In this document: positions 2,838 through 48,119 of the stretch, in pieces
How the letters are laid out: the number at the start of each line of letters is the position of its first letter
Position numbering within the stretch: the first letter of the stretch is position 1
Assembly: GCA_032124015.1 (NCBI GenBank)
Contig: JAQBEH010000049.1
Coordinates: 12,458-76,457 of the forward strand
Origin: Acidobacteriota bacterium
GTDB lineage: Bacteria; Acidobacteriota; Polarisedimenticolia; Polarisedimenticolales; DASRJG01
DNA length: 64,000 nucleotides
Direction: 5' to 3'
Notes under the pieces: generated by a model
The model's database searches: none
What the model was told of the DNA's origin: nothing
Seen by the model: only the letters and a program-made list of their open reading frames with translations
Position numbers and translations under genes: made by a program

Positions 2838-2910
2838 GCCGGCCTCCCCGAGGATCCTCTGGAGTCCCTTACCTGCGGTAGGACGGATGAACGGAGGAGA
2901 GCTTCGTGCA

Positions 2911-2998
2911 TCGTCCCGTTTCCCTACGCTGGCATGACCCAGTTCAGGTTCCAGGGTTTGATCTCAGTCCGGCTCTCGCCGGACACCCCTAACGGACA
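2911..2998 (-). promoter_or_regulatory. TPP (THI-box) riboswitch
   Basis: The minus-strand RNA reads GUCCGUU-AGGGGUGUCCGGCGAGAGCCGGACUGAGAUCAAACCCUGGAACCUGAACUGGGUCAUGCCAGCGUAGGGAA-ACGGGAC. This matches the conserved THI-element blocks GGGGUG, CUGAGA, ACCC, GAACCUGA.CUGG.UAAUGCCAGCGUAGGGAA. The P1 helix is GUCCGUU/AACGGGAC. It sits about 75 nt upstream of the receptor start. Confidence 0.9.
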
Positions 2999-3005
2999 CC
3001 TCAAC

Positions 3006-3123: not shown

Positions 3124-3198
3124 GGCGGCGTAGCCAAGTGGTAAGGCAACGGTCTGCAAAACCGTCATTCACCGGTTCAAATCCGGTCGCCGCCTCCA
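3124..3198 (+). tRNA. tRNA-Cys (anticodon GCA), CCA encoded
   Basis: Hand-folded cloverleaf. Acceptor GGCGGCG/CGCCGCC; D arm GCC-AAGUGGUAA-GGC; anticodon stem ACGGU/ACCGU with loop CUGCAAA; variable loop CAUUC; T arm ACCGG-UUCAAAU-CCGGU. The discriminator is U73, the Cys identity element, followed by CCA. Confidence 0.92.
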
Positions 3199-36773: not shown

Positions 36774-37802
36774 CTAGATCCGAAAGCTCTTCACCGTCTC
36801 GACGAACGCGATCGCGTTGTCGACCGGGGTCTCGGGAAAGATGCCGTGGCCGAGGTTGGCGATGTGGCCGGGTAGACCGGCGCCGTCTTCGAGCATCGCA
36901 AGTGTGCGGCGGCGCACCGTTGCGACATCGGCGAGGAGAACGCACGGGTCGAGGTTTCCCTGCAACGCAAACCCGCCGCCTACGGCGCGTGACGCGTCCG
37001 CCAGACTCCTGCGCCAGTCGGCGCCGAGCACGTCCGCGCCGCATTGTGCGACTTCGCGGGCCGCGTGCGCCGCATCGAGGGCGAAGTAGATCGTGGGGAC
37101 GCCCTCCGCCCGGACCGCTTCGAGCACGCGCTTCACGTAGGGGAGGGAGAACGCCGCATAGTCCTCGGCCGAGACCAGTCCCGCCCAGGTGTCGAACAAT
37201 TGGATCGCCTGGGCTCCCGCTCGCACTTGGGCGACGAGATAGCGAATGGTCGTTAGCGTCGTTTTGTCGAGCAGGGCATGGGCGACGTCGGGGGCGGCGT
37301 AGAGCATCCGCTTCCATTTCCCGAACGACCGGGACCCTTCCCCCTCGACGAGATACGCGGCGAGCGTGAACGGCGCGGCGCCAAAGCCGATCAACGGGAC
37401 GCGCCCCGCAAGCTCACGGCGAAGGATCCGGATCGTCTCGTAGACGAAAGGAACCTCCTGTTCGATCTCGGGAACGACGAGGCGGGCGACATCGTCGGCT
37501 GAGCGCACGGGCGGGTCGACGACCGGCCCCGGATTGAAGTCGAGGTTCAAACCCATCGCCGGTGCGGGAATGAGAATGTCCGAAAAGAGGATTGCGGCGT
37601 CGACGCCAAGCCTGTCGATCGGCTGAATGGTCACCTGGGCCGCAAGCTCTGGGGTCCGGCACAGCGTCAGGAAGTCGACTTTTCTTCTGACCTCGCGGTA
37701 CTCGGGGAGGTAACGGCCGGCCTGGCGCATGAGCCACACCGGAGGACGCGACCCTCGTTCGCCCCGGCAAGCTCGGAGGAAAAGATCGGTGTCGTGTTTC
37801 AT
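36774..37802 (-). CDS. hemE: uroporphyrinogen decarboxylase
   Basis: PPVWLMRQAGRYLPEYREVR signature, 342 aa full length. Confidence 0.95.
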   Translation of the reverse strand: MKHDTDLFLRACRGERGSRPPVWLMRQAGRYLPEYREVRRKVDFLTLCRTPELAAQVTIQPIDRLGVDAAILFSDILIPAPAMGLNLDFNPGPVVDPPVRSADDVARLVVPEIEQEVPFVYETIRILRRELAGRVPLIGFGAAPFTLAAYLVEGEGSRSFGKWKRMLYAAPDVAHALLDKTTLTTIRYLVAQVRAGAQAIQLFDTWAGLVSAEDYAAFSLPYVKRVLEAVRAEGVPTIYFALDAAHAAREVAQCGADVLGADWRRSLADASRAVGGGFALQGNLDPCVLLADVATVRRRTLAMLEDGAGLPGHIANLGHGIFPETPVDNAIAFVETVKSFRI

Positions 37803-37805
37803 GCG

Positions 37806-38969
37806 CTAGTCGTCCAGGATCGACTTGGCGATCGTCGACAGCTGCATGAATGAGGTGCCCTCGTAGATCTTCCCGATCTTGACGTCGCGGTAGTACTTCT
37901 CGACGGGGTATTCCGTCGAGTAGCCGTTACCGCCGAACACTTCGACCGCCATCGCGCAGATCCTTTCGGCGGCGTCGCTCGCGTACAGCTTTGCCATCGC
38001 GGCCTCTTTGACGAACGGGAGATCCGCGTCCCTGAGGCGCGCGGCGTTGTAGACCAGCAGGCGGGCCGCCTCGAGGCGCGTCGCGCCGTCGGCGAGCTGG
38101 AAGCGCATCGCCTGAAACTTGGAAAGGCGCTTGCCGAATTGAACCCGTTCCTTCGCATAGCCGATGGCCGCATCGAGCGCCGCTTGGCCGACGCCGACCA
38201 TCTGCGCGCCGATGCCGATCCGTCCTTCGTTCAACGTCTCGATGGCGATCTTGTACCCCTTCCCCACGGGGCCCATCAGCCGGTCCGCGGGGATGCGGCA
38301 GTTCGTGAGCAGGACCTCGCAGGTCGAGCTCGCGCGAATGCCCAGCTTGCTCTCGCGCTTGCCGAGCGAGAAACCCGGGTCGTCCTTTTCGACGAGAAAC
38401 GCCGTGATCCCCTTGTACCCGGCCTTCGGATCGACGGTGGCGAAGACCAGGAAGATCCCCGCCTCGGCGGCGTTGGTGATCCAGAGCTTCTGGCCGTCAA
38501 GGACGTAGTGATCGCCGCTTGAAACCGCGCGGCATTGGAGCGCGAACGCGTCGGAGCCGGAACCGGCCTCCGATAGACAGTACGACGCGACGGTGTCGGC
38601 CGACGTGCGCGTCAAGTACTTGGCCTTTTGTTCCGGCGTTCCATTCCGGTCGATGGCGTTGTTGACGAGTGTGTTCTGGACGTCGACGAGGACGCCCACC
38701 GCGGCGTCCGCGCGCGAAAGCTCTTCGACCGCGAGACACGCTTGGAAGAAACTCCCGCCGGAACCGCCGTACGCCTCCGGAACGTCGATTCCCATCAGCC
38801 CCATCTCGAAGAGCTTCAGGAGTACGGCGGGGTCGTAGCGGCCCGCGGTTTCCATCGCGCGCGCTTTCGGTGCGATCTCGGCCTGAGCGAATTCGCGCAC
38901 GGAATCGCGGAAGAGGGACTCTTCCTCCGAAAGAACGGTGAGTGGGGTCAAAACGGCGGGTGTCGACAT
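37806..38969 (-). CDS. acyl-CoA dehydrogenase (short/medium-chain type)
   Basis: 387 aa. Motifs: ASYCLSEAGSGSDAFAL, WITNAAEAGIFLVFA, and C-terminal YEGTSFMQLSTIAKSIL. Confidence 0.95.
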   Translation of the reverse strand: MSTPAVLTPLTVLSEEESLFRDSVREFAQAEIAPKARAMETAGRYDPAVLLKLFEMGLMGIDVPEAYGGSGGSFFQACLAVEELSRADAAVGVLVDVQNTLVNNAIDRNGTPEQKAKYLTRTSADTVASYCLSEAGSGSDAFALQCRAVSSGDHYVLDGQKLWITNAAEAGIFLVFATVDPKAGYKGITAFLVEKDDPGFSLGKRESKLGIRASSTCEVLLTNCRIPADRLMGPVGKGYKIAIETLNEGRIGIGAQMVGVGQAALDAAIGYAKERVQFGKRLSKFQAMRFQLADGATRLEAARLLVYNAARLRDADLPFVKEAAMAKLYASDAAERICAMAVEVFGGNGYSTEYPVEKYYRDVKIGKIYEGTSFMQLSTIAKSILDD

Positions 38970-39034: not shown

Positions 39035-42000
39035 TCAGGGCAGGTTGATCGTCAGGACGACCTCCGCCCCTTCCGCGAGCGTCGCGGCGGCCGTTGCGCG
39101 TCGCGACTCGGAGTCGACGGTCAACTCGTAGGCTCCGGGAGCGAGCGAGGAAACCGTCGTCGCGCCGTCGGCGCCGGTGGGCGGCGTCCTGTCGAGGAAC
39201 GACGCATAGCCGGCCCCGAGGTAGTCGGGAACCGCCCGGCAGGACACGCGAGCGCCCACCACGGGATTTCCGTCCGGATTGACAACGATTACGCGAACGT
39301 GGGCCGGACGGGGAGCGCGTAGCACCACGTCGACCCCGTCTTGCGGCTGAATGGACACGGCGCGCGCCGGAGGGAATCCCGACGCGACCGCAGTCAGGTC
39401 GATCGGACCGTCGACGGGCGCGGTCACGAAGAAGGCGCCGTTGACGTCTGAAACTGCTTGCATGGAGTCGCGCCCCGAAGACAGGGTGCCCGACGGTCCC
39501 GCCATCACCATGGCGCCGGCGATCCCGTTACCGCCGGCGTCGAGAACGCGGCCGCGCACCGTGCGTCCGGGTTCGAGACGTACGTCGACGGACGGAACGT
39601 CGTCCTCGTTCGCGATGGTCACGGGCGGCATCTCGGCGTTGCGGTAGCCGGAAGCCGCGACCGTGAGCCCGTAGACCCCCGGCTCGAGCCCTTCGACGAG
39701 GAACGATCCGTCCGGTTCGGTGCGGTCCTGCATTCCACCCCGCCCGTGACCCGATGGCTCCGACGCCGCGCCGGTGGCGGTCACGGTGACGACCGCCCCG
39801 GACACCGGCCTTCCTTCGGCGTTCGTCACGCGGCCGGAGATCCCGGCCGCCTTCATCGTGATGTCGACGACGGGGTTTTCTTGGTCCGGAACCTGGATGG
39901 AGATCGCGGATTGAGCGCCACCGAAGATGGCTCCGCCGGATGCGACCACGACCTGGTAGGAACCCGCGGTGTCGAGTCCGACCTGGTAACGGCCCTCGGC
40001 GTCGGTGCGCGACTGCCTGAGATCCGCCGGCGTCCCGCTTCCGTTCGACGTGTTGAAAAAGAGCATCGCATTGCCGACCGGTTGTCCGCCCTTGAGCACG
40101 TGCCCGGTGAGGTTGATCTTGGCGGCGTCGTCCAGATCGTGAACGGTCGTTTCGCCCTCTTTCACGACGACCTGGCGCATGCCGCCGACAAGCATCAACG
40201 GTCCTCCGCCCGTCGGCGCGCGGATCACCATGTATTCGCCGGGAGCGATCTTCTCGAAGGTGTAGCGCCCGTCCGCTCCCGTCGAAACGGTTTGAGGTCC
40301 GCCGCTCATCGGCACCTTGGTGAGCAGCACCTGGGCGCCGACCTGAGGCACCTTCTGAGCATCCCGCACGAGGCCCGTGATCGTCCCGCCGCGCGAGAGC
40401 TTGATGACGAAGTCGTCGGTGTCGGCGTCGGCGGCGATCTCGACGCGGCCGGTGTTGGGGGAGAAATCCGGCTGCGACGCATCGATCGCGTAGGTGCGCG
40501 GCTCCAATCCTGCGATCTCGAACCGTCCGTCGAGCCCGGAGATCGCAAGCCCCGCGGTGGTGTCGCCGCCGATGGACATCCTGAAACTCTGCGGCGGCGC
40601 AACCGACACGGTCGCCCCCGGAACCGGCGCGTCGTCTTTTGCGGCGACGACCCGCCCGCGCAGCGCGCGGCCGTCTTCGAGCGTGATCGTTCCGACGTCG
40701 ACGACCTGGTCCGAGACGACCGTCAGCCCGCTCTTTCGCGCGGGGGCCTTCCCGTCGGCATTTGCCGTGATGGTCACGATGCCCGGATCGACTCCGTCGA
40801 GGCGGAAGTTCCCTGAGGGGTCGGTGAAGATCTTGTCTTCTTCCGGTCGGTCGGCGATCATGACCCGGAACCCCTGCCGCTCCTGATTTTCTTTGGCCTC
40901 GGGGAACGCCTGCACGCGAAACGCCGGCGGGACCGCGCCGCCCACGGAGAGGACGCGACCTACGACGCTCCCCGTTTTTTCGAGCGTGAAATCGACCGCG
41001 GTGTCCCCTGGGGTCGCGCCCTCGCGAGTCGAGTTCGCATAGCCCTCGGCCCGTACCGACATGTTGCGCAAGGGTTGGTCGCCAAGCCCGGAGAGGCGGA
41101 AACGGCCATCCTCACCCGATCGCGCCTCGCGCGAGAGCCGCATTTGGGCGTCGAGCCACAACCCCGAGATCGTCGCCCCTGCGATGGGCCGTCCGCTCGT
41201 GTCGGTGATGCGCCCAGAGATGCTCTTCGATTCCTTGACGCGCAAGGTGCCGAGATCCGTCGTCTCGCCGTTCTTGAGCTTGAGACCTGTTTTAGTGATG
41301 TCCGCGAAGTCCGGGGGCTGCAACGTCAGATCGAAAGTCCCCGGATCGAGCGCCTTGATGAGGAACTTCCCGTCGCCTTGCGGCTCGATCTTGTCCTGGT
41401 CGACGTCGCCCCTGCCCAACCCCATGCCGCGGCGCCTTCCGCCGCCTTGCGGCTGGAGCTGCACTTCGACGCTTTTCACCGGGACGTCCTCGTCGGTCGC
41501 GAGGCGGAAAGCGAGGAGCGCTCCGGACTCGAGCTTCAGCTCGAGGTCGGCTCGGTCGGTCCCCGCCTCGACCGGAATGGGGCCGTCGTCCTTCGTGGCC
41601 AAGCCTTCCTTCGTCGCCCGTACGGTGTACTTGTTCCCCGCGGCGATCCCATCGAACGCGAACTTGCCGTCGACGTCGGTGCGTTGCGCTCCGTTGCCCT
41701 CGCGCAGCATCGCGAAGAGGCTCCCGTCCGAGGGCGACGCCGTGACGATCGCATCCGCGAGCGGTTTCCCGTCGGGGCCCAAAACGCGCCCCGCGATCCG
41801 GCCACCCGGCTGCAGGTAGAGCGTATTGGCGTCGGGGTTGCGCTCTTCACCGGGTGCGACCGGCTTGGCGACGACCTGATCGAGGCGCGCCTTGGCCTTC
41901 GCCTTTGCTATCGCTTCGACGATGATGATGCCGGGAGCGCAATCGGCCAGGATGAACGTTCCGTCCTCGGCAGTCTTGACGGTGTGCGCCGCATCCGTTC

Positions 42001-42523
42001 CGAAGCGCGCGGCATCCTTCTCGAGTCCCGTGACCGTGGCGTTTGCGATCGGCTTTTGAGTCGTGAGGTCGAGCACGCGGCCGACGACGGTCGTTCCGGG
42101 TTTGAGTCGCAAGGTGACGGCGGCCCCCGCCGGAATGTTGTTCGCGCCCGTCGGGGCGAATCCCGGGGCCTCGATACGCAGCGCGAAGGGGCCGGTCGCA
42201 AGTCCGTCGAGGCGGAACGCGCCCGTGGCGTCTGTCTTGGCGACGACGGCTTTCGGCGCGTCGGGCGCCCGGCGAACGCGGCGAGGGGATTCGGTCTTTT
42301 TCGGCATGGGGATCGCGCGCACCGTTGCGGCGGCGACGGGCTTCCCGTCGGGTCCCGTGACCTTTCCCGTGATCGTCTTTGCGGGCGGGGGTTTCGTCAC
42401 CGCACCGGTCGGCACGGCCGCGGCCGCCGCGACCGGTGCTCCGACACCGGGCTTCATCTCGTCCGCGAGAACTCCGGGGTGGGCGACAAGGCCGATGGCA
42501 AGAGCGACGATCATCAGTCGCAT
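39035..42523 (-). CDS. large secreted protein made of ~12 tandem carboxypeptidase-regulatory-like (CarboxypepD_reg) domains
   Basis: Signal peptide MRLMIVALAIGLVAHPGVLA. A recurring ~85-90-aa unit begins (I/V)xGRVxDxxGxPxxGAxV and contains F.(L/I).GL.PG.Y. I count about 12 units by eye. Confidence 0.85.
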   Translation of the reverse strand: MRLMIVALAIGLVAHPGVLADEMKPGVGAPVAAAAAVPTGAVTKPPPAKTITGKVTGPDGKPVAAATVRAIPMPKKTESPRRVRRAPDAPKAVVAKTDATGAFRLDGLATGPFALRIEAPGFAPTGANNIPAGAAVTLRLKPGTTVVGRVLDLTTQKPIANATVTGLEKDAARFGTDAAHTVKTAEDGTFILADCAPGIIIVEAIAKAKAKARLDQVVAKPVAPGEERNPDANTLYLQPGGRIAGRVLGPDGKPLADAIVTASPSDGSLFAMLREGNGAQRTDVDGKFAFDGIAAGNKYTVRATKEGLATKDDGPIPVEAGTDRADLELKLESGALLAFRLATDEDVPVKSVEVQLQPQGGGRRRGMGLGRGDVDQDKIEPQGDGKFLIKALDPGTFDLTLQPPDFADITKTGLKLKNGETTDLGTLRVKESKSISGRITDTSGRPIAGATISGLWLDAQMRLSREARSGEDGRFRLSGLGDQPLRNMSVRAEGYANSTREGATPGDTAVDFTLEKTGSVVGRVLSVGGAVPPAFRVQAFPEAKENQERQGFRVMIADRPEEDKIFTDPSGNFRLDGVDPGIVTITANADGKAPARKSGLTVVSDQVVDVGTITLEDGRALRGRVVAAKDDAPVPGATVSVAPPQSFRMSIGGDTTAGLAISGLDGRFEIAGLEPRTYAIDASQPDFSPNTGRVEIAADADTDDFVIKLSRGGTITGLVRDAQKVPQVGAQVLLTKVPMSGGPQTVSTGADGRYTFEKIAPGEYMVIRAPTGGGPLMLVGGMRQVVVKEGETTVHDLDDAAKINLTGHVLKGGQPVGNAMLFFNTSNGSGTPADLRQSRTDAEGRYQVGLDTAGSYQVVVASGGAIFGGAQSAISIQVPDQENPVVDITMKAAGISGRVTNAEGRPVSGAVVTVTATGAASEPSGHGRGGMQDRTEPDGSFLVEGLEPGVYGLTVAASGYRNAEMPPVTIANEDDVPSVDVRLEPGRTVRGRVLDAGGNGIAGAMVMAGPSGTLSSGRDSMQAVSDVNGAFFVTAPVDGPIDLTAVASGFPPARAVSIQPQDGVDVVLRAPRPAHVRVIVVNPDGNPVVGARVSCRAVPDYLGAGYASFLDRTPPTGADGATTVSSLAPGAYELTVDSESRRATAAATLAEGAEVVLTINLP

Positions 42524-42587: not shown

Positions 42588-43871
42588 CTAGCCGGCGCCC
42601 CCCGACAGGACGACTGCTTCGCCGCCGTAGAGGCTCGACGGGAAGAGGATCGGAAGCAGCTCGTGAAGGAACTGGCGGCGCTTGTACGCCGCGTGGCTCG
42701 CGAAATGCGTGTCGTAGAGCGTGCTCAGGTACGCCTCGAGCGGGAAGATCTGAATCTCGACCGAGAACATGTAGGGAACGTCCGACGACGGGTCGTCCAT
42801 CAGGATGTCGACGATTTCCTTGAGCACGAGAAACCCACTCGACGATTGCGGGTCGAGGCGGGCGCGATCGCGGCTTCCGGACAGCGTGTCGATCCGATCG
42901 CGGCATCGGAGCGGTCCGCCAAAGGCGGAAACGAGCCTCCGTTCCAACGCGTAGGTCTGGGAACGGTCCCCGACGATGAACATGGCCCCCAGAAGGTCCT
43001 GGACCATACGCGGATCGGGGATCGCCCTGCGGATCAGCTTGGAGAGGATCGATCCGCTGTGCCGTCCTAGTCCCGGCCAGCGCGGGGACTCGGCAATGCG
43101 GATCCAGCCTTCGTCGGCGCGCTTGTCGGTCTCCGGGTCCGCTTCACGTTTGAAACGGGTCCGGTAGTGAAAGATCTCGATCGCCGGATCGCGTCCTTCG
43201 GCCGGGAGCTTTCGCGGCCGGAAACGGAACGCGCGCGCGCCGGGACCTACGACTTCGACTTCGTCCGAATTTTGGACCTCGGAGAACAGAGCGTCTTTGA
43301 CGATCGACTCGAACCGGACGAGGTGCTTCGGGCCGTCGCGCACCGCCCGCGAATGGTCGATGTCGAAGAGGAGCTTTGCGAGGTAGAGCTTTCGCTGCGC
43401 CTCGTAGCGCGCGCGTGTGTGCGGTCCCTCGAACGTCGCCTTGAGCAGGTCGCGAATCGTGCTCGCGCCGCGGGTTTCGGGGAGCGGCGCGAGATGCCGC
43501 GCGAGCGAATCGGGCACGAGCCGCAGCAGATCGTTCAGGTAGGCGTCGGCATCGTGGAAATAGGGGGCGAGGTCGACGGCGGTTGAGGACCGGCTGCCGG
43601 CCGGCATCACGTACCCGCGGACGACGCGCTCGAACACGACGGGGTCGCGCATCATCCGGCGGTACGTGTCGATCCAGAGGCGCGCGAGCGCGGGATGGCG
43701 GCTCGGGAGCCGAGGGTCGAGCAACGGATGGGCTTCGTACGCCGCGGCGAGCTGCGCGTCGGGTGTGGGCGCGGGGCGTCGAGAAGTCTCTGTCACGGTA
43801 GTTCTTTCGCCCCGCGAGAGTACCAAAGTGCGAGGTGGGGTGCGAGCGCGTGCTAATCTGGCCGTTCTCAT
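42588..43871 (-). CDS. hypothetical protein with divergent RelA/SpoT-like (RSH synthetase-fold) C-terminal domain
   Basis: The C-terminal 150 aa carry, in canonical order and spacing: [14 protein letters not shown] (cf. GRxKxxxSxxxK), DLLGAMFIV (cf. DxxGxRxI), RDRIDT...[11 protein letters not shown] (cf. DYI..PK..GYxSxH), VEIQIFP (cf. EIQIRT) and SHAAYK (cf. H..YK). The start is uncertain: ATG 43871 lies only 15 nt from the divergent tpx, and there is an in-frame GTG at 43796. Confidence 0.65.
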
Positions 43872-43885
43872 ACGGAGGATCCTGC

Positions 43886-44389
43886 ATGGCCAACATCACG
43901 CTCAAGGGCAATCCCTTCCATACGTCCGGAGAGCTCCCTGCGGTCGGGGCGCCGGCTCCGAACTTCCGCCTCGTCACGGCCGACCTTCAAGACGTCACCC
44001 TCGACACCTACCGGGGAAAAACCAAGGTCTTGAACATCGTCCCGAGCCTGGACACCCCGGTTTGCGCGGCCTCCGCGCGCAAGTTCAACGAAAAGGCCGC
44101 TTCGATCAGGGACGCCGTGGTGCTCGTCGTTTCGGCGGACCTGCCGTTCGCGATGAAGCGTTTCTGCACGACCGAGGGCCTTCACAACGTGCTGCCGCTT
44201 TCGATGATGCGCGGCCGCAACTTCGCGAAGGAATACGGGACGCTCATCACCGACGGTCCACTCGAAGGGATCTCCGCGCGCGCGGTGGTGGTCATCGACG
44301 CGAACGACAAGGTCGTCTACACGCAACTCGTAAAGGAAATCGGCGAGGAGCCGAACTACGACGCCGCGCTCGCCGCGATCGCGAAGTAG
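43886..44389 (+). CDS. tpx: thiol peroxidase (atypical 2-Cys peroxiredoxin Tpx)
   Basis: Start at [18 protein letters not shown], with the peroxidatic-Cys context [12 protein letters not shown] and the resolving-Cys context [19 protein letters not shown] is present. Confidence 0.95.
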
Positions 44390-44400
44390 GCAAATCCGGT

Positions 44401-45255
44401 TCAGCCGACGAACGGGGCGAGGCCTTCGCGAAAGCTCGGATAGGCCAGAACGGTTTCGAGTTCGCGACGAGTCGCCTCGGAGCTGACGCGACGGTTCGCG
44501 CCGCGCCGTCCCCCCTTGGGGCTTCCCTCAGGCCGCCGGGACGGATCCATCCCGATCCGCGCGGAGATCCAGGCGACGAGATCCCGCCGCATCGCGGGGG
44601 AGGCGTCGCTGGCGTGGTAGATCGCGCCCGGGCTCCCGCGATCGAGCGCCGCGATGACCGCAACCGCGGCATCGTCGCGATGGCAGAAGTTCATCCACGT
44701 CTCGTCCCCATCACCCAACGCAAGGGTTCCCGCGCGCACGCGTTCGATCGTACCCGTGCGCCCGGGACCGTACAGGCCGGAGCAGCGGACGATGCGCGGT
44801 TGCGCGCGATGCCACGACCGGTCAAGGACGAGGCGCTCGGCCTCGACGAGCACTTGGGCCGTCGGTTCCGCCGGTGAGGGCGGCGTCGACTCGTCCACCC
44901 ACGATCCGTCGGTTCGGCCGAAGACCCCCGTCGAGCTCACGTAGACGAACGCGGCGCCGTCGGCGCCTTCCGATTCGAGGACGCATCGGGTCGCCTCGAG
45001 ATAGGCGCGTCGATAGGCGGCCGCGCCGCGACCCGACGCCGACTGCATGGCCACGATCCCGTCGTAACGGCCCCGGATCGATCGCGACGCGCCGGGGGCG
45101 GCGAGATCGAGGGCTGAAGCTTCGATCCCGATCTCGCGCAGGTGCTTCGCGCTCGGTTCGGTCCGCGTCAGCGCCGTGACGCGATCGCCTCGGGCGACGA
45201 GACGCCTCGCTACCTCCCGTCCCAGCCAGCCGCACCCCGCGAGAAGTAAGTGCAT
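44401..45255 (-). CDS. NAD(P)-binding epimerase/dehydratase-family (atypical SDR) protein
   Basis: Rossmann N-terminus MHLLLAGCGWLGREVARRLVARG, followed by ...YVSSTGVFG... and the LYGPGR motif. Confidence 0.75.
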   Translation of the reverse strand: MHLLLAGCGWLGREVARRLVARGDRVTALTRTEPSAKHLREIGIEASALDLAAPGASRSIRGRYDGIVAMQSASGRGAAAYRRAYLEATRCVLESEGADGAAFVYVSSTGVFGRTDGSWVDESTPPSPAEPTAQVLVEAERLVLDRSWHRAQPRIVRCSGLYGPGRTGTIERVRAGTLALGDGDETWMNFCHRDDAAVAVIAALDRGSPGAIYHASDASPAMRRDLVAWISARIGMDPSRRPEGSPKGGRRGANRRVSSEATRRELETVLAYPSFREGLAPFVG

Positions 45256-45308
45256 GGGAGGACAGTAGCACCCGCGCTTGCCGCGCTGTCGGCTACAATG
45301 CCGCGGAC

Positions 45309-46300
45309 ATGGATTACGCGATCGAAGGGTTCGAGCTCGAAAAGTCGTTCGCGAAGAAACGCTCCCTCACGGAACTGGTCACGAAGCCGTTCGCGGTTCC
45401 CGAACGCGTCCGCGCCTTGCGCGGCGTCGACCTGGGCGTCAAGACGGGGGAGATCTTCGGGCTACTCGGTCCCAACGGGGCCGGCAAGACGACGCTCGTC
45501 AAGATCCTCTCGTGCCTCATCCTCCCGGATCACGGCCGTGCCTCGATCGGCGGAGAGGACGTGCGTCACGAAAACAAGGTCAAGCCGCGGATGGGATTGG
45601 TGCACTCGGACGAACGCTCGTTCTACTGGCGGCTTTCGGGGCGGGAGAATCTGAGGTTCTTCGCCCGGCTCTACGACGTCCCCGGCAAGCGCATCGACTC
45701 CCGGATCGACGAGCTCCTGCTGAAGGTGGATCTCACCGAAGCCGCGCCCCAGCGGTTCGCGGACTACTCCTCGGGGATGAAGCAACGTCTCGCGATCGCG
45801 CGCGCCCTGCTCCACGATCCGCCGGTGCTGCTGATGGACGAACCCACCCGGAGCCTGGATCCGTCGGCGTCCCTTGCGCTGCGCGCTCTGATCAAAGACG
45901 AGCTCCAGGGGCGCGACGGGAAGACGATTCTCCTGGCCACCCACAACCTGCGCGAGGCCGAGGTCTTGTGCGACCGGGTCGCGATTCTCGTGCAGGGGAC
46001 CGTGCGGCAGGTCGGCACCGTCGCCGAGGTTCGCCGCTGGGGGATCGACGAGCATCAGTTCCGGCTCGAGGTCGCCAACTGGCGCGACGACATCGCCGGC
46101 CCGTTTCGGATCGTCTCGAACGAGCACGCCGGCGAAAACCGGCGCGTCGTGGTCGCCCTCGACGGGAAGATCGTTCTCGACGACGTGTTGAAATCGGTGA
46201 TGGCCCAAGGCGGCTCGATCCGGGCCTGCGACCGGATCGAGCCGGACCTCGAGGAGGCGTTCGCGCGGTTGCTGGCCCAAGAGACCGCGAGGGGTAGCGT

Positions 46301-46304
<4 letters not shown>
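45309..46304 (+). CDS. ABC transporter ATP-binding protein
   Basis: Walker A GLLGPNGAGKTT, signature YSSGMKQRLAIARAL, Walker B LLMDEPT, H-loop ATHNL. Confidence 0.9.

Positions 46305-48119
<1,815 letters not shown>

Follow-up and report, generated by a model that had tools for sequence, protein, structure and literature searches.

A probable RelA/SpoT-type synthetase domain behind a helical N-terminal domain in a family of hypothetical proteins from Acidobacteriota and other phyla

Introduction

The window analysed in this study is the whole 64,000-nt stretch of contig JAQBEH010000049.1 from the Acidobacteriota assembly GCA_032124015.1, and we focus on one gene on its minus strand, located next to the thiol peroxidase gene tpx. 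The C-terminal part of its product, about 160 amino acids (aa), is very likely a highly diverged synthetase domain of the RelA/SpoT homologue (RSH) type, related by fold homology to known bacterial enzymes for the synthesis of the stress signal (p)ppGpp. A preliminary description made from the sequence had proposed a divergent RelA/SpoT-like domain with retained acidic and altered basic residues, joined to an unrecognised N-terminal region, and our analysis supports this central proposal.

The gene and its product

The gene is a real open reading frame (ORF), which in its longest reading comprises 427 codons and a stop codon. Its GC content at the three codon positions (GC1/2/3 = 0.68/0.49/0.81) is of the coding type in a window with 66% GC, and a protein 100% identical to the window protein (P0001) was found on 49 contigs. 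The actual product is probably 402 aa long and starts at a GTG (43796) rather than at the ATG of the 427-aa form. This start is preferred because the N-termini of homologues align near it, because residues 1-30 of the longer form are unconserved and were modelled with a predicted local distance difference test (pLDDT) value below 50, because no more than 14 nt separate the ATG at 43871 from the divergent tpx ATG at 43886, and because a 402-aa form is included in the protein's own 90%-identity cluster. Residue numbers are those of the 427-aa form throughout, and the coordinates of all features are collected in Table 1.

As noted in the preliminary description, the gene is divergent from tpx, which encodes a thiol peroxidase of the Redoxin/AhpC-TSA type, and is separated by 64 nt from a downstream gene for a 1162-aa protein on the same strand. 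In the region around the RSH-like gene, neither an Rfam element nor a sigma-70-like promoter or an intrinsic terminator was detected, and the 64-nt gap contains no terminator-like site.

Table 1. Features of the RSH-like gene in the window; Syn1 to Syn5 denote the RSH synthetase motifs and 57/57 a count among orthologues
Feature	Position	Strand	Basis
Longest ORF, RSH-like protein	42588..43871	-	ORF list, GC3 pattern, identical protein P0001
GTG codon 26, more probable start, 402-aa product	43794..43796	-	homologue N-termini, pLDDT, tpx spacing, cluster member
Divergent intergenic region in common with tpx, 89 nt (if the start is GTG 43796)	43797..43885	.	
All-helical N-terminal domain, aa 37-194	43290..43763	-	AlphaFold2 pLDDT ~90 in full model
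Beta-rich segment, aa 195-268, with R239-x-K241 strand and family-specific hairpin	43068..43289	-	
R239-F-K241, candidate displaced RxK (Syn1) dyad	43149..43157	-	57/57 conserved
RSH synthetase-fold core (very likely), aa 269-427	42591..43067	-	Foldseek against PDB, BFVD, hhalign chain, collinear motifs
Syn1 S-x-x-x-K helix, aa 273-282 (S274 = RelSeq S247, K278 = K251)	43026..43055	-	
DLLGAMFIV strand = Syn2, aa 292-300 (D292 = RelSeq D264, Mg-binding Asp)	42972..42998	-	
RDRIDT strand, aa 324-329, at the Syn3 (K/R-D-Y-I) position	42885..42902	-	
SSSGFLVLK, aa 343-351 = G-loop equivalent (GYxSxH)	42819..42845	-	
VEIQIFP, aa 371-377 = Syn4 (EIQIRT); E372 and Q374 catalytic pair	42741..42761	-	
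SHAAYKRRQ, aa 392-400 = Syn5 (HxxYK) and family signature RRQ	42672..42698	-	
ELLPILFP, C-terminal signature (LFP..IY) in common with TIGR04552-like relatives	42639..42662	-	

Fold of the C-terminal core

An AlphaFold2 model of the full-length protein, built on a 30-sequence alignment, reached a pLDDT of 82.7 and a predicted template modelling (pTM) score of 0.81. When this full model was compared with the PDB by Foldseek, ranks 1-41 were all occupied by RSH synthetases (E values from 3e-4, probability 1.00). The top matches include RelP, RelQ/SAS1, SAS2, CapRel (7ztb) and the Rel proteins of S. aureus and B. subtilis, and the small alarmone synthetases (SAS) that produce (p)ppGpp outscore CapRel. 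The next matches after the RSH proteins are Pol mu/TdT with E values above 0.3. In the viral model library BFVD, the best matches are phage proteins annotated as RelA/SpoT. The fold check by structure prediction that had been suggested for this protein thus gave a similarity to RSH synthetases that is both significant and specific, and the modelled core appears superposable on solved SAS/Rel synthetase domains. It is predicted to consist of a helix (272-281), a strand (294-300), a second helix (303-316), three further strands (323-328, 350-358 and 367-377) and a final helix (393-409), an order which we take to be that of RSH synthetases, with each motif in the element where it is expected.

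On the sequence level, the connection to genuine RSH proteins is a transitive one. An exhaustive search with a hidden Markov model (HMM) of the family (A1, the family alignment) against 1.84 billion representatives yielded a small core of 42 clusters (E <=1e-30), surrounded by a halo of 243 distant proteins (E <=1e-3), with distant relatives at E values of 1e-6 to 1e-18. Pfam RelA_SpoT (PF04607) is matched by 23 of 37 halo proteins (best E 3.2e-7), and those listed individually score 17-23 bits, below the 27-bit cutoff of that model. The same 37 proteins match the NCBIfam models TIGR04552 (21 proteins) and TIGR04562 (19 proteins) with a best E value of 1e-10. An alignment of the distant relatives found with A1 (A2), used as a profile against the PDB, retrieved RelSeq (1vj7) at E 7.8e-5, and eight of its nine matches are RSH proteins. 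By hhalign, A1 and A2 are joined over 300 columns corresponding to query aa 100-420 (probability 99.9, E 4e-37), and A2 is joined to an alignment of 11 genuine Rel/RelA/SpoT synthetase sequences (probability 95.5, E 1.5e-8). The alignment of 57 orthologues with genuine RSH sequences (P 0.0018, probability 15%) brings the motifs together in collinear order, namely SILSK with SIYRK, D292..M297 with D..R, GF..K with GY..H, VEIQIFP with VEVQIRT and SHAAYK with AHWAYK (query/RSH).

Several observations weigh against an RSH assignment and against an active enzyme of this type. The template modelling (TM) scores to SAS structures are modest, 0.43-0.54 when normalised to the target. The PF04607 search proposed earlier as a check fails: the protein has no match to this model at E <=10, and none of 30 diverse homologues matches it at E <=1. 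A sequence search of the PDB with the protein or the family profile retrieved no RSH chain, and direct profile-profile comparisons of the orthologues with RSH sequences reach probabilities of only 7-15% (P 0.0018-0.005). The literature found that mentions TIGR04552, one of the two closest annotated families, reports no function and no link to RSH proteins. Finally, basic residues that bind the ATP phosphates in RSH synthetases are absent at three canonical positions (L268, the variable position 270 and M297), and without the canonical phosphate-holding residues donor binding or chemistry may differ.

Two of these points, the lack of a direct Pfam or PDB sequence match and the low direct hhalign probability, could also be read as a sign that the RSH likeness is a chance coincidence of motifs in an unrelated fold. 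This explanation is extremely improbable and effectively refuted, given that two independent structure libraries rank RSH proteins on top, that each of the transitive profile links is highly significant, and that five motifs are collinear and lie in the correct predicted secondary-structure elements. Apart from this, the direct matches of the protein and the family profile in Pfam, NCBIfam and PDB sequences were discarded as being at chance level (vMSA, E 0.15; polyphosphate kinase 2o8r, E 0.075; GGDEF, E ~1).

Conserved and substituted residues of the synthetase motifs

For the conservation counts, 57 orthologues were taken from GTDB genomes, the most distant of them at 32% identity. Each of the synthetase motifs quoted in the preliminary description was recovered at its place and in the given order, and the motif residues proved to be conserved among the homologues. 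The residues S274, S277, K278, R281, D292, G295, F298, K351, E372, Q374, H393, K397, R399 and Q400 are found in all 57 sequences. This invariant set covers the equivalents of RelSeq S247, K251, D264, E323 and Q325 as well as the HxxYK helix. Hence, the catalytic Asp of Syn2 and the Glu-x-Gln of Syn4 are present without exception, in agreement with the earlier statement that the acidic Asp and Glu are kept. In the Syn3 strand, R324 is present in 48 of the 57 sequences (otherwise Lys or Gln) and D328 in 52, whilst L405, P407 and P411 of the C-terminal signature are conserved in at least 98%.

The basic clamp for the ATP phosphates, formed in RSH synthetases by RxK and the Arg of D-x-x-G-x-R, is not found at its canonical place. 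Position 297, which corresponds to this Arg, is Met in 54 of the 57 sequences, as the preliminary description had recognised for the window protein. It had also reported the Lys of RxK as absent, and this is right for the canonical position 270, which is variable (R in 21 sequences, H in 10, Q in 8, E in 5, G in 4); position 268 is Leu. On the preceding predicted strand (231-240), there is an invariant R239-x-K241 at the end of the strand, 33 residues upstream of S274, and we suspect from this sequence pattern that it could be a displaced RxK. A family-specific insertion of about 27 aa lies between this strand and the Syn1 helix. In the case of the G-loop, the reported change of GYxSxH to GFLVLK holds for the His, which is replaced by the invariant K351. 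The aromatic residue for stacking against the acceptor base is kept, since position 347 is Tyr in 25 and Phe, a conservative exchange, in 32 of the sequences.

Canonical RSH proteins, namely RelP/RelQ (SAS1/SAS2) and the PF04607 synthetase domain of Rel/RelA/SpoT, agree with the family in the alpha/beta topology of the core and in the succession of the five motifs, and they give the best structural matches. The family differs from them by the Lys of RxK and the Arg of GxR being off their canonical positions and by the Lys in place of the GYxSxH His, as well as by the insertion in front of the Syn1 helix, the helical N-terminal domain of 160 aa and the C-terminal RRQ...LFP..IY signature. A Pfam scan of the window protein detected no HD, TGS or ACT domain, so that it does not have the composition of a long RSH.

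The C-terminal motif at aa 392-411 (42639-42698, minus strand) is conserved throughout the TIGR04552-like superfamily described below. It shows a weak likeness to the N-terminal domain of polyphosphate kinase 1 (2o8r, E 0.075, 'AYLRRFFHEEIFPLLYP'), which is probably due to chance.

The inactive hydrolase domain of RelA is an example of a pseudo-domain in the RSH superfamily. A catalytically dead protein that binds a nucleotide or an alarmone as a sensor or scaffold could be imagined here as well, as basic ATP-phosphate residues are missing at the canonical positions and the Pfam model is not matched. We regard this as improbable, because D292, E372, Q374, S274, K278 and H393 are invariant in 57 sequences down to 32% identity, as expected from purifying selection on catalysis. 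Judged from these residue patterns, the protein is fairly likely to be catalytically competent.

The same substitutions could indicate an RSH fold with another chemistry, such as nucleotidyl (AMP) transfer or the transfer of a phosphoryl or pyrophosphoryl group to a non-nucleotide acceptor, with the clamp for the beta/gamma phosphates of ATP replaced. In this respect, the Lys of RxK and the Arg of GxR have given way to conserved non-basic residues (M297 in 54/57; L268), the next structural neighbours are nucleotidyltransferases of the Pol beta type, and a neighbouring enzyme similar to methionine gamma-lyase in a second clade (see below) could be a sign of a function in metabolism instead of signalling. 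However, the single Asp (D-x-x-G) together with E-x-Q is of the RSH type and not the D-x-D of classical nucleotidyltransferases, the G-loop aromatic residue and the HxxYK helix, both used for acceptor binding in RSHs, are kept, and the Pol mu/TdT matches are not significant. Such a different chemistry is therefore unlikely, although slightly less so than a dead enzyme.

The N-terminal region

The preliminary description had spoken of an N-terminal region of about 250 aa without recognisable features. This is correct as far as the helical domain has no fold match, but the region really consists of two parts, helical aa 37-194 and a beta-rich insert at aa 195-268. The helical domain contains the residues H48, Y111, E157, R160, K161 and H183, which are invariant in the 57 orthologues. 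Modelled alone it reached a pLDDT of 79.6, and a Foldseek comparison of it with the PDB gave no significant fold match (best E 3.8). Likewise, nothing was found with a helical-domain profile in PDB sequences. A degenerate HD hydrolase was considered on the basis of the pattern H48, [H]D107, D109 and D179/H183; it was rejected, as position 106 is variable and neither a Pfam HD match nor a fold match exists. An internal duplication, suggested by the placement of an N-terminal segment on Syn1-Syn2 (hhalign of A1 against a single RelA, probability 0.09), was also rejected, as this segment is predicted to be helical and the score is noise.

The beta-rich insert belongs to the sheet region. Strands were assigned in it by DSSP at 205-208, 214-217, 220-222, 231-240, 244-247 and 260-263. 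About 23 residues of the insert (A1 columns 245-267, at ~aa 204-205) that are present in most orthologues are missing in the window protein, P0013 and P0099. Because 49 contigs carry the 100% identical sequence, this gap cannot be put down to misassembly and represents a true lineage-specific deletion.

Relatives in an unannotated superfamily

Among proteins for which a database model exists, the TIGR04552 and TIGR04562 proteins, represented by Myxococcus MXAN_4858 and Bdellovibrio DOE51_RS08710, are closest in sequence to the family. Among 30 family members, weak matches to TIGR04562 were obtained for 23 and to TIGR04552 for 14 (best E 3.5e-4). The window protein itself scores 12.1 bits (E 0.081) against TIGR04562, where the cutoff is 140 bits, and is thus not a member. 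The family is an unannotated sister of these uncharacterised NCBIfam proteins.

Like the family, the bridging TIGR04552/TIGR04562 relatives contain the later N-terminal helices, an RSH-like core and the C-terminal LFP motif. The architecture in common is a helical region with an R-[YF]-E-A-x-R-K motif, the RSH-like core and a C-terminal H..Y..RQ...LFP..IY signature. In contrast, the family has the initial ~100 aa and the beta insert to itself, it occurs in different phyla, and the canonical Lys four residues before the Syn1 Ser, which is kept in the TIGR04552 proteins (A2 consensus), is not found in it. Since the TIGR04552-like relatives carry the helices from ~aa 100 on together with the core, the architecture characterises a whole unannotated superfamily beyond the family itself, and is no isolated fusion. 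It is not unique to the window gene, since TIGR04552/TIGR04562-like proteins also have the core and the later of the N-terminal helices.

All members of the superfamily are named 'hypothetical protein', including those from Candidatus Uhrbacteria and Woesearchaeota. In three distant relatives of 706-742 aa (P0234, P0244 and P0245), the unit of N-terminal helices and RSH-like core is fused to a C-terminal NUDIX hydrolase (E 2.6e-7 to 4.6e-11), which may constitute a synthetase-hydrolase pair. In other distant relatives of ~840-890 aa (P0199, P0200, P0203, P0218 and similar), the RSH-like unit is C-terminal and follows about 650 aa without a Pfam match.

Distribution and gene neighbourhood

The family is present in 89 of 185,579 GTDB species representatives, all of which are metagenome-assembled genomes (MAGs). 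The hosts belong to the Acidobacteriota (including Polarisedimenticolaceae and Vicinamibacterales), Eisenbacteria, Krumholzibacteriota, Gemmatimonadota and Latescibacterota, to bins of the Fibrobacteres-Chlorobi-Bacteroidetes (FCB) group and, in one case, to the Dormiibacterota. The closest genome by protein (90% identity) is an Acidobacteriota MAG.

Neighbourhoods were compared at 80 loci, with ORFs filtered by the GC3 frame. Within the clade of the window protein (>=44% identity), the gene is located between tpx and, variably, a CarboxypepD_reg protein (11 loci), followed by genes for an acyl-CoA dehydrogenase, hemE and hemN. In the window, acyl-CoA dehydrogenase, hemE (URO-D) and then hemN are found downstream at 36774-38969 (minus strand), in synteny with related Acidobacteriota MAGs. 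An NAD-dependent epimerase, an ABC transporter pair and a malate/lactate dehydrogenase beyond tpx (44401-48119) are likewise syntenic in these MAGs. The divergent neighbours of the RSH-like gene in Eisenbacteria and in part of the Gemmatimonadota are yggS-yggT-divIVA-dksA-rluD.

In a second clade, whose members share 33-40% identity with the window protein, a pyridoxal phosphate (PLP) enzyme of Cys/Met metabolism lies directly upstream on the same strand at no fewer than 21 loci (range L033-L087), and the RSH-like proteins with this neighbour are 33-98% identical to one another. The gaps are mostly -4 to 62 nt with two larger ones of 109 and 293 nt; an example is the pair L043:4668-5882 upstream of L043:6001-7224. 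The PLP enzyme matches PF01053 (E 9e-150), and its closest models are those for methionine gamma-lyase, whose cutoffs it does not reach. The two genes may form an operon and may be linked to sulfur amino-acid metabolism. The PLP enzyme neighbour is absent from the window clade.

The 1162-aa protein encoded downstream in the window (39035-42523, minus strand) contains at least nine CarboxypepD_reg repeats (PF13620, E 5e-116). It was rejected as a partner of the RSH-like protein, as it occurs at 11 window-clade loci only and is absent in L001 and elsewhere. Two further features of the window are unrelated to the RSH-like gene, a TPP riboswitch at 2904-3000 (minus strand), whose 65.5 bits exceed the gathering score, and a tRNA gene at 3124-3195 (plus strand).

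At the 80 loci there is neither a universally conserved neighbour nor a small antitoxin-like gene. The PADLOC defence search gave no match, and no relative of the family was found in the phage and plasmid searches. A canonical Rel is encoded neither in the window nor in the fetched loci, which says nothing on whole genomes. By context and by the PADLOC, phage and plasmid searches, a toxic SAS (toxSAS) or defence module was ruled out. The protein is a cytoplasmic enzyme encoded by a single, vertically inherited chromosomal gene that is not part of a toxin-antitoxin or defence module.

Divergent RSH-fold enzymes with a chemistry other than (p)ppGpp synthesis are known. The toxSAS enzymes (FaRel, FaRel2, PhRel, PhRel2, CapRel), Tas1 and the adenosine 3'-pyrophosphokinase domains of MuF toxins synthesise (pp)pApp or pyrophosphorylate the 3' end of tRNA (PMC7229694; 10.1101/2021.04.30.441581; PMC12226406). 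CapRel is also among the fold matches of the window protein. These toxins are encoded in two- or three-gene toxin-antitoxin operons, prophages, type VI secretion system or polymorphic-toxin loci, whereas the window family shows a housekeeping synteny.

An RNA or tRNA 3'-pyrophosphokinase similar to CapRel, FaRel2 and PhRel2 has nevertheless to be considered, which would act on the tRNA CCA end or on other RNA and in which a basic N-terminal domain would bind RNA or be autoinhibitory, so that a self-controlled translation regulator would result. The CapRel structure 7ztb is matched by the model, tRNA-modifying toxSAS enzymes are documented (10.1101/2021.04.30.441581; PMC11245113), many invariant Arg and Lys residues (R153, R155, R160, K161, R239, K241, R399) lie outside the core, and the N-terminal domain of the window protein has an isoelectric point (pI) of 9.7. 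However, no association with an antitoxin-like neighbour, a defence island, a phage or a plasmid and no PADLOC match were observed, the SAS (p)ppGpp synthetases score above CapRel, and the NUDIX fusions of the relatives suit a small-nucleotide product better. Within the family, whole-protein pI values between 6.2 and 9.7 were obtained, and net charge was accordingly discarded as a clue to RNA binding because it is not diagnostic. Altogether an RNA substrate is unlikely, if less so than the two alternatives discussed with the motifs.

Proposed activity

We moderately favour the view that the protein is an active, chromosomally inherited pyrophosphokinase of the RSH type. In the manner of RSH synthetases, it would bind ATP-Mg and pass the beta,gamma-pyrophosphate on to an acceptor's 3'-OH. 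By equivalence with those synthetases, the invariant D292, E372 and Q374 would serve in Mg2+ binding and catalysis, S274, K278 and R281 are predicted to contact the donor ATP, and H393 and K397 would be part of the HxxYK helix. The loss of the RxK Lys and the GxR Arg is probably compensated by the candidates R239, K241, R160 and K161, all of which are invariant, and these residues may also set acceptor specificity or gate the activity. The N-terminal domain, which in the model is confidently packed on the core, may similarly define the acceptor or act as a gate.

That the acceptor is a nucleotide can be proposed only tentatively. In this case it would most likely be a purine nucleotide, since the stacking aromatic residue (F/Y347) is kept, and an alarmone-like product would be formed. 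A small-nucleotide product is also favoured because the NUDIX fusions echo the synthetase-hydrolase pairing of bifunctional RSHs. A role as regulator or metabolic enzyme rather than as toxin is suggested by the housekeeping synteny (tpx, hemE, hemN, yggT, divIVA) and by vertical inheritance.

A further-reaching and rather doubtful idea is that the family and the TIGR04552-like superfamily (Myxococcota, Bdellovibrionota, bacteria of the candidate phyla radiation and DPANN archaea) form a separate ancient branch of the RSH fold, which makes an undescribed nucleotide messenger or pyrophosphorylates an acceptor. The N-terminal domain would then confer acceptor specificity, and the fused NUDIX domain would be the matching hydrolase in some lineages.

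Significance

RSH enzymes control how bacteria grow and respond to stress. In the published census of RSH proteins, members were detected by HMMs (PMC7229694). Because PF04607 does not detect the family described here, such HMM-based censuses probably missed it. It is no great surprise in itself that a growing enzyme superfamily has a divergent member, and the fold assignment is solid; the family has an intact-looking catalytic centre and yet is invisible to PF04607. 'Hypothetical proteins' of Acidobacteriota, Eisenbacteria, Krumholzibacteriota and Gemmatimonadota are now tied to TIGR04552 proteins of the cultivable Myxococcus and Bdellovibrio, and this link provides both groups with a testable biochemical hypothesis. 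If the acceptor is a new one, a further signalling nucleotide or modification would be added to those known. If it is GDP/GTP, the family would represent a hidden source of (p)ppGpp in its host phyla.

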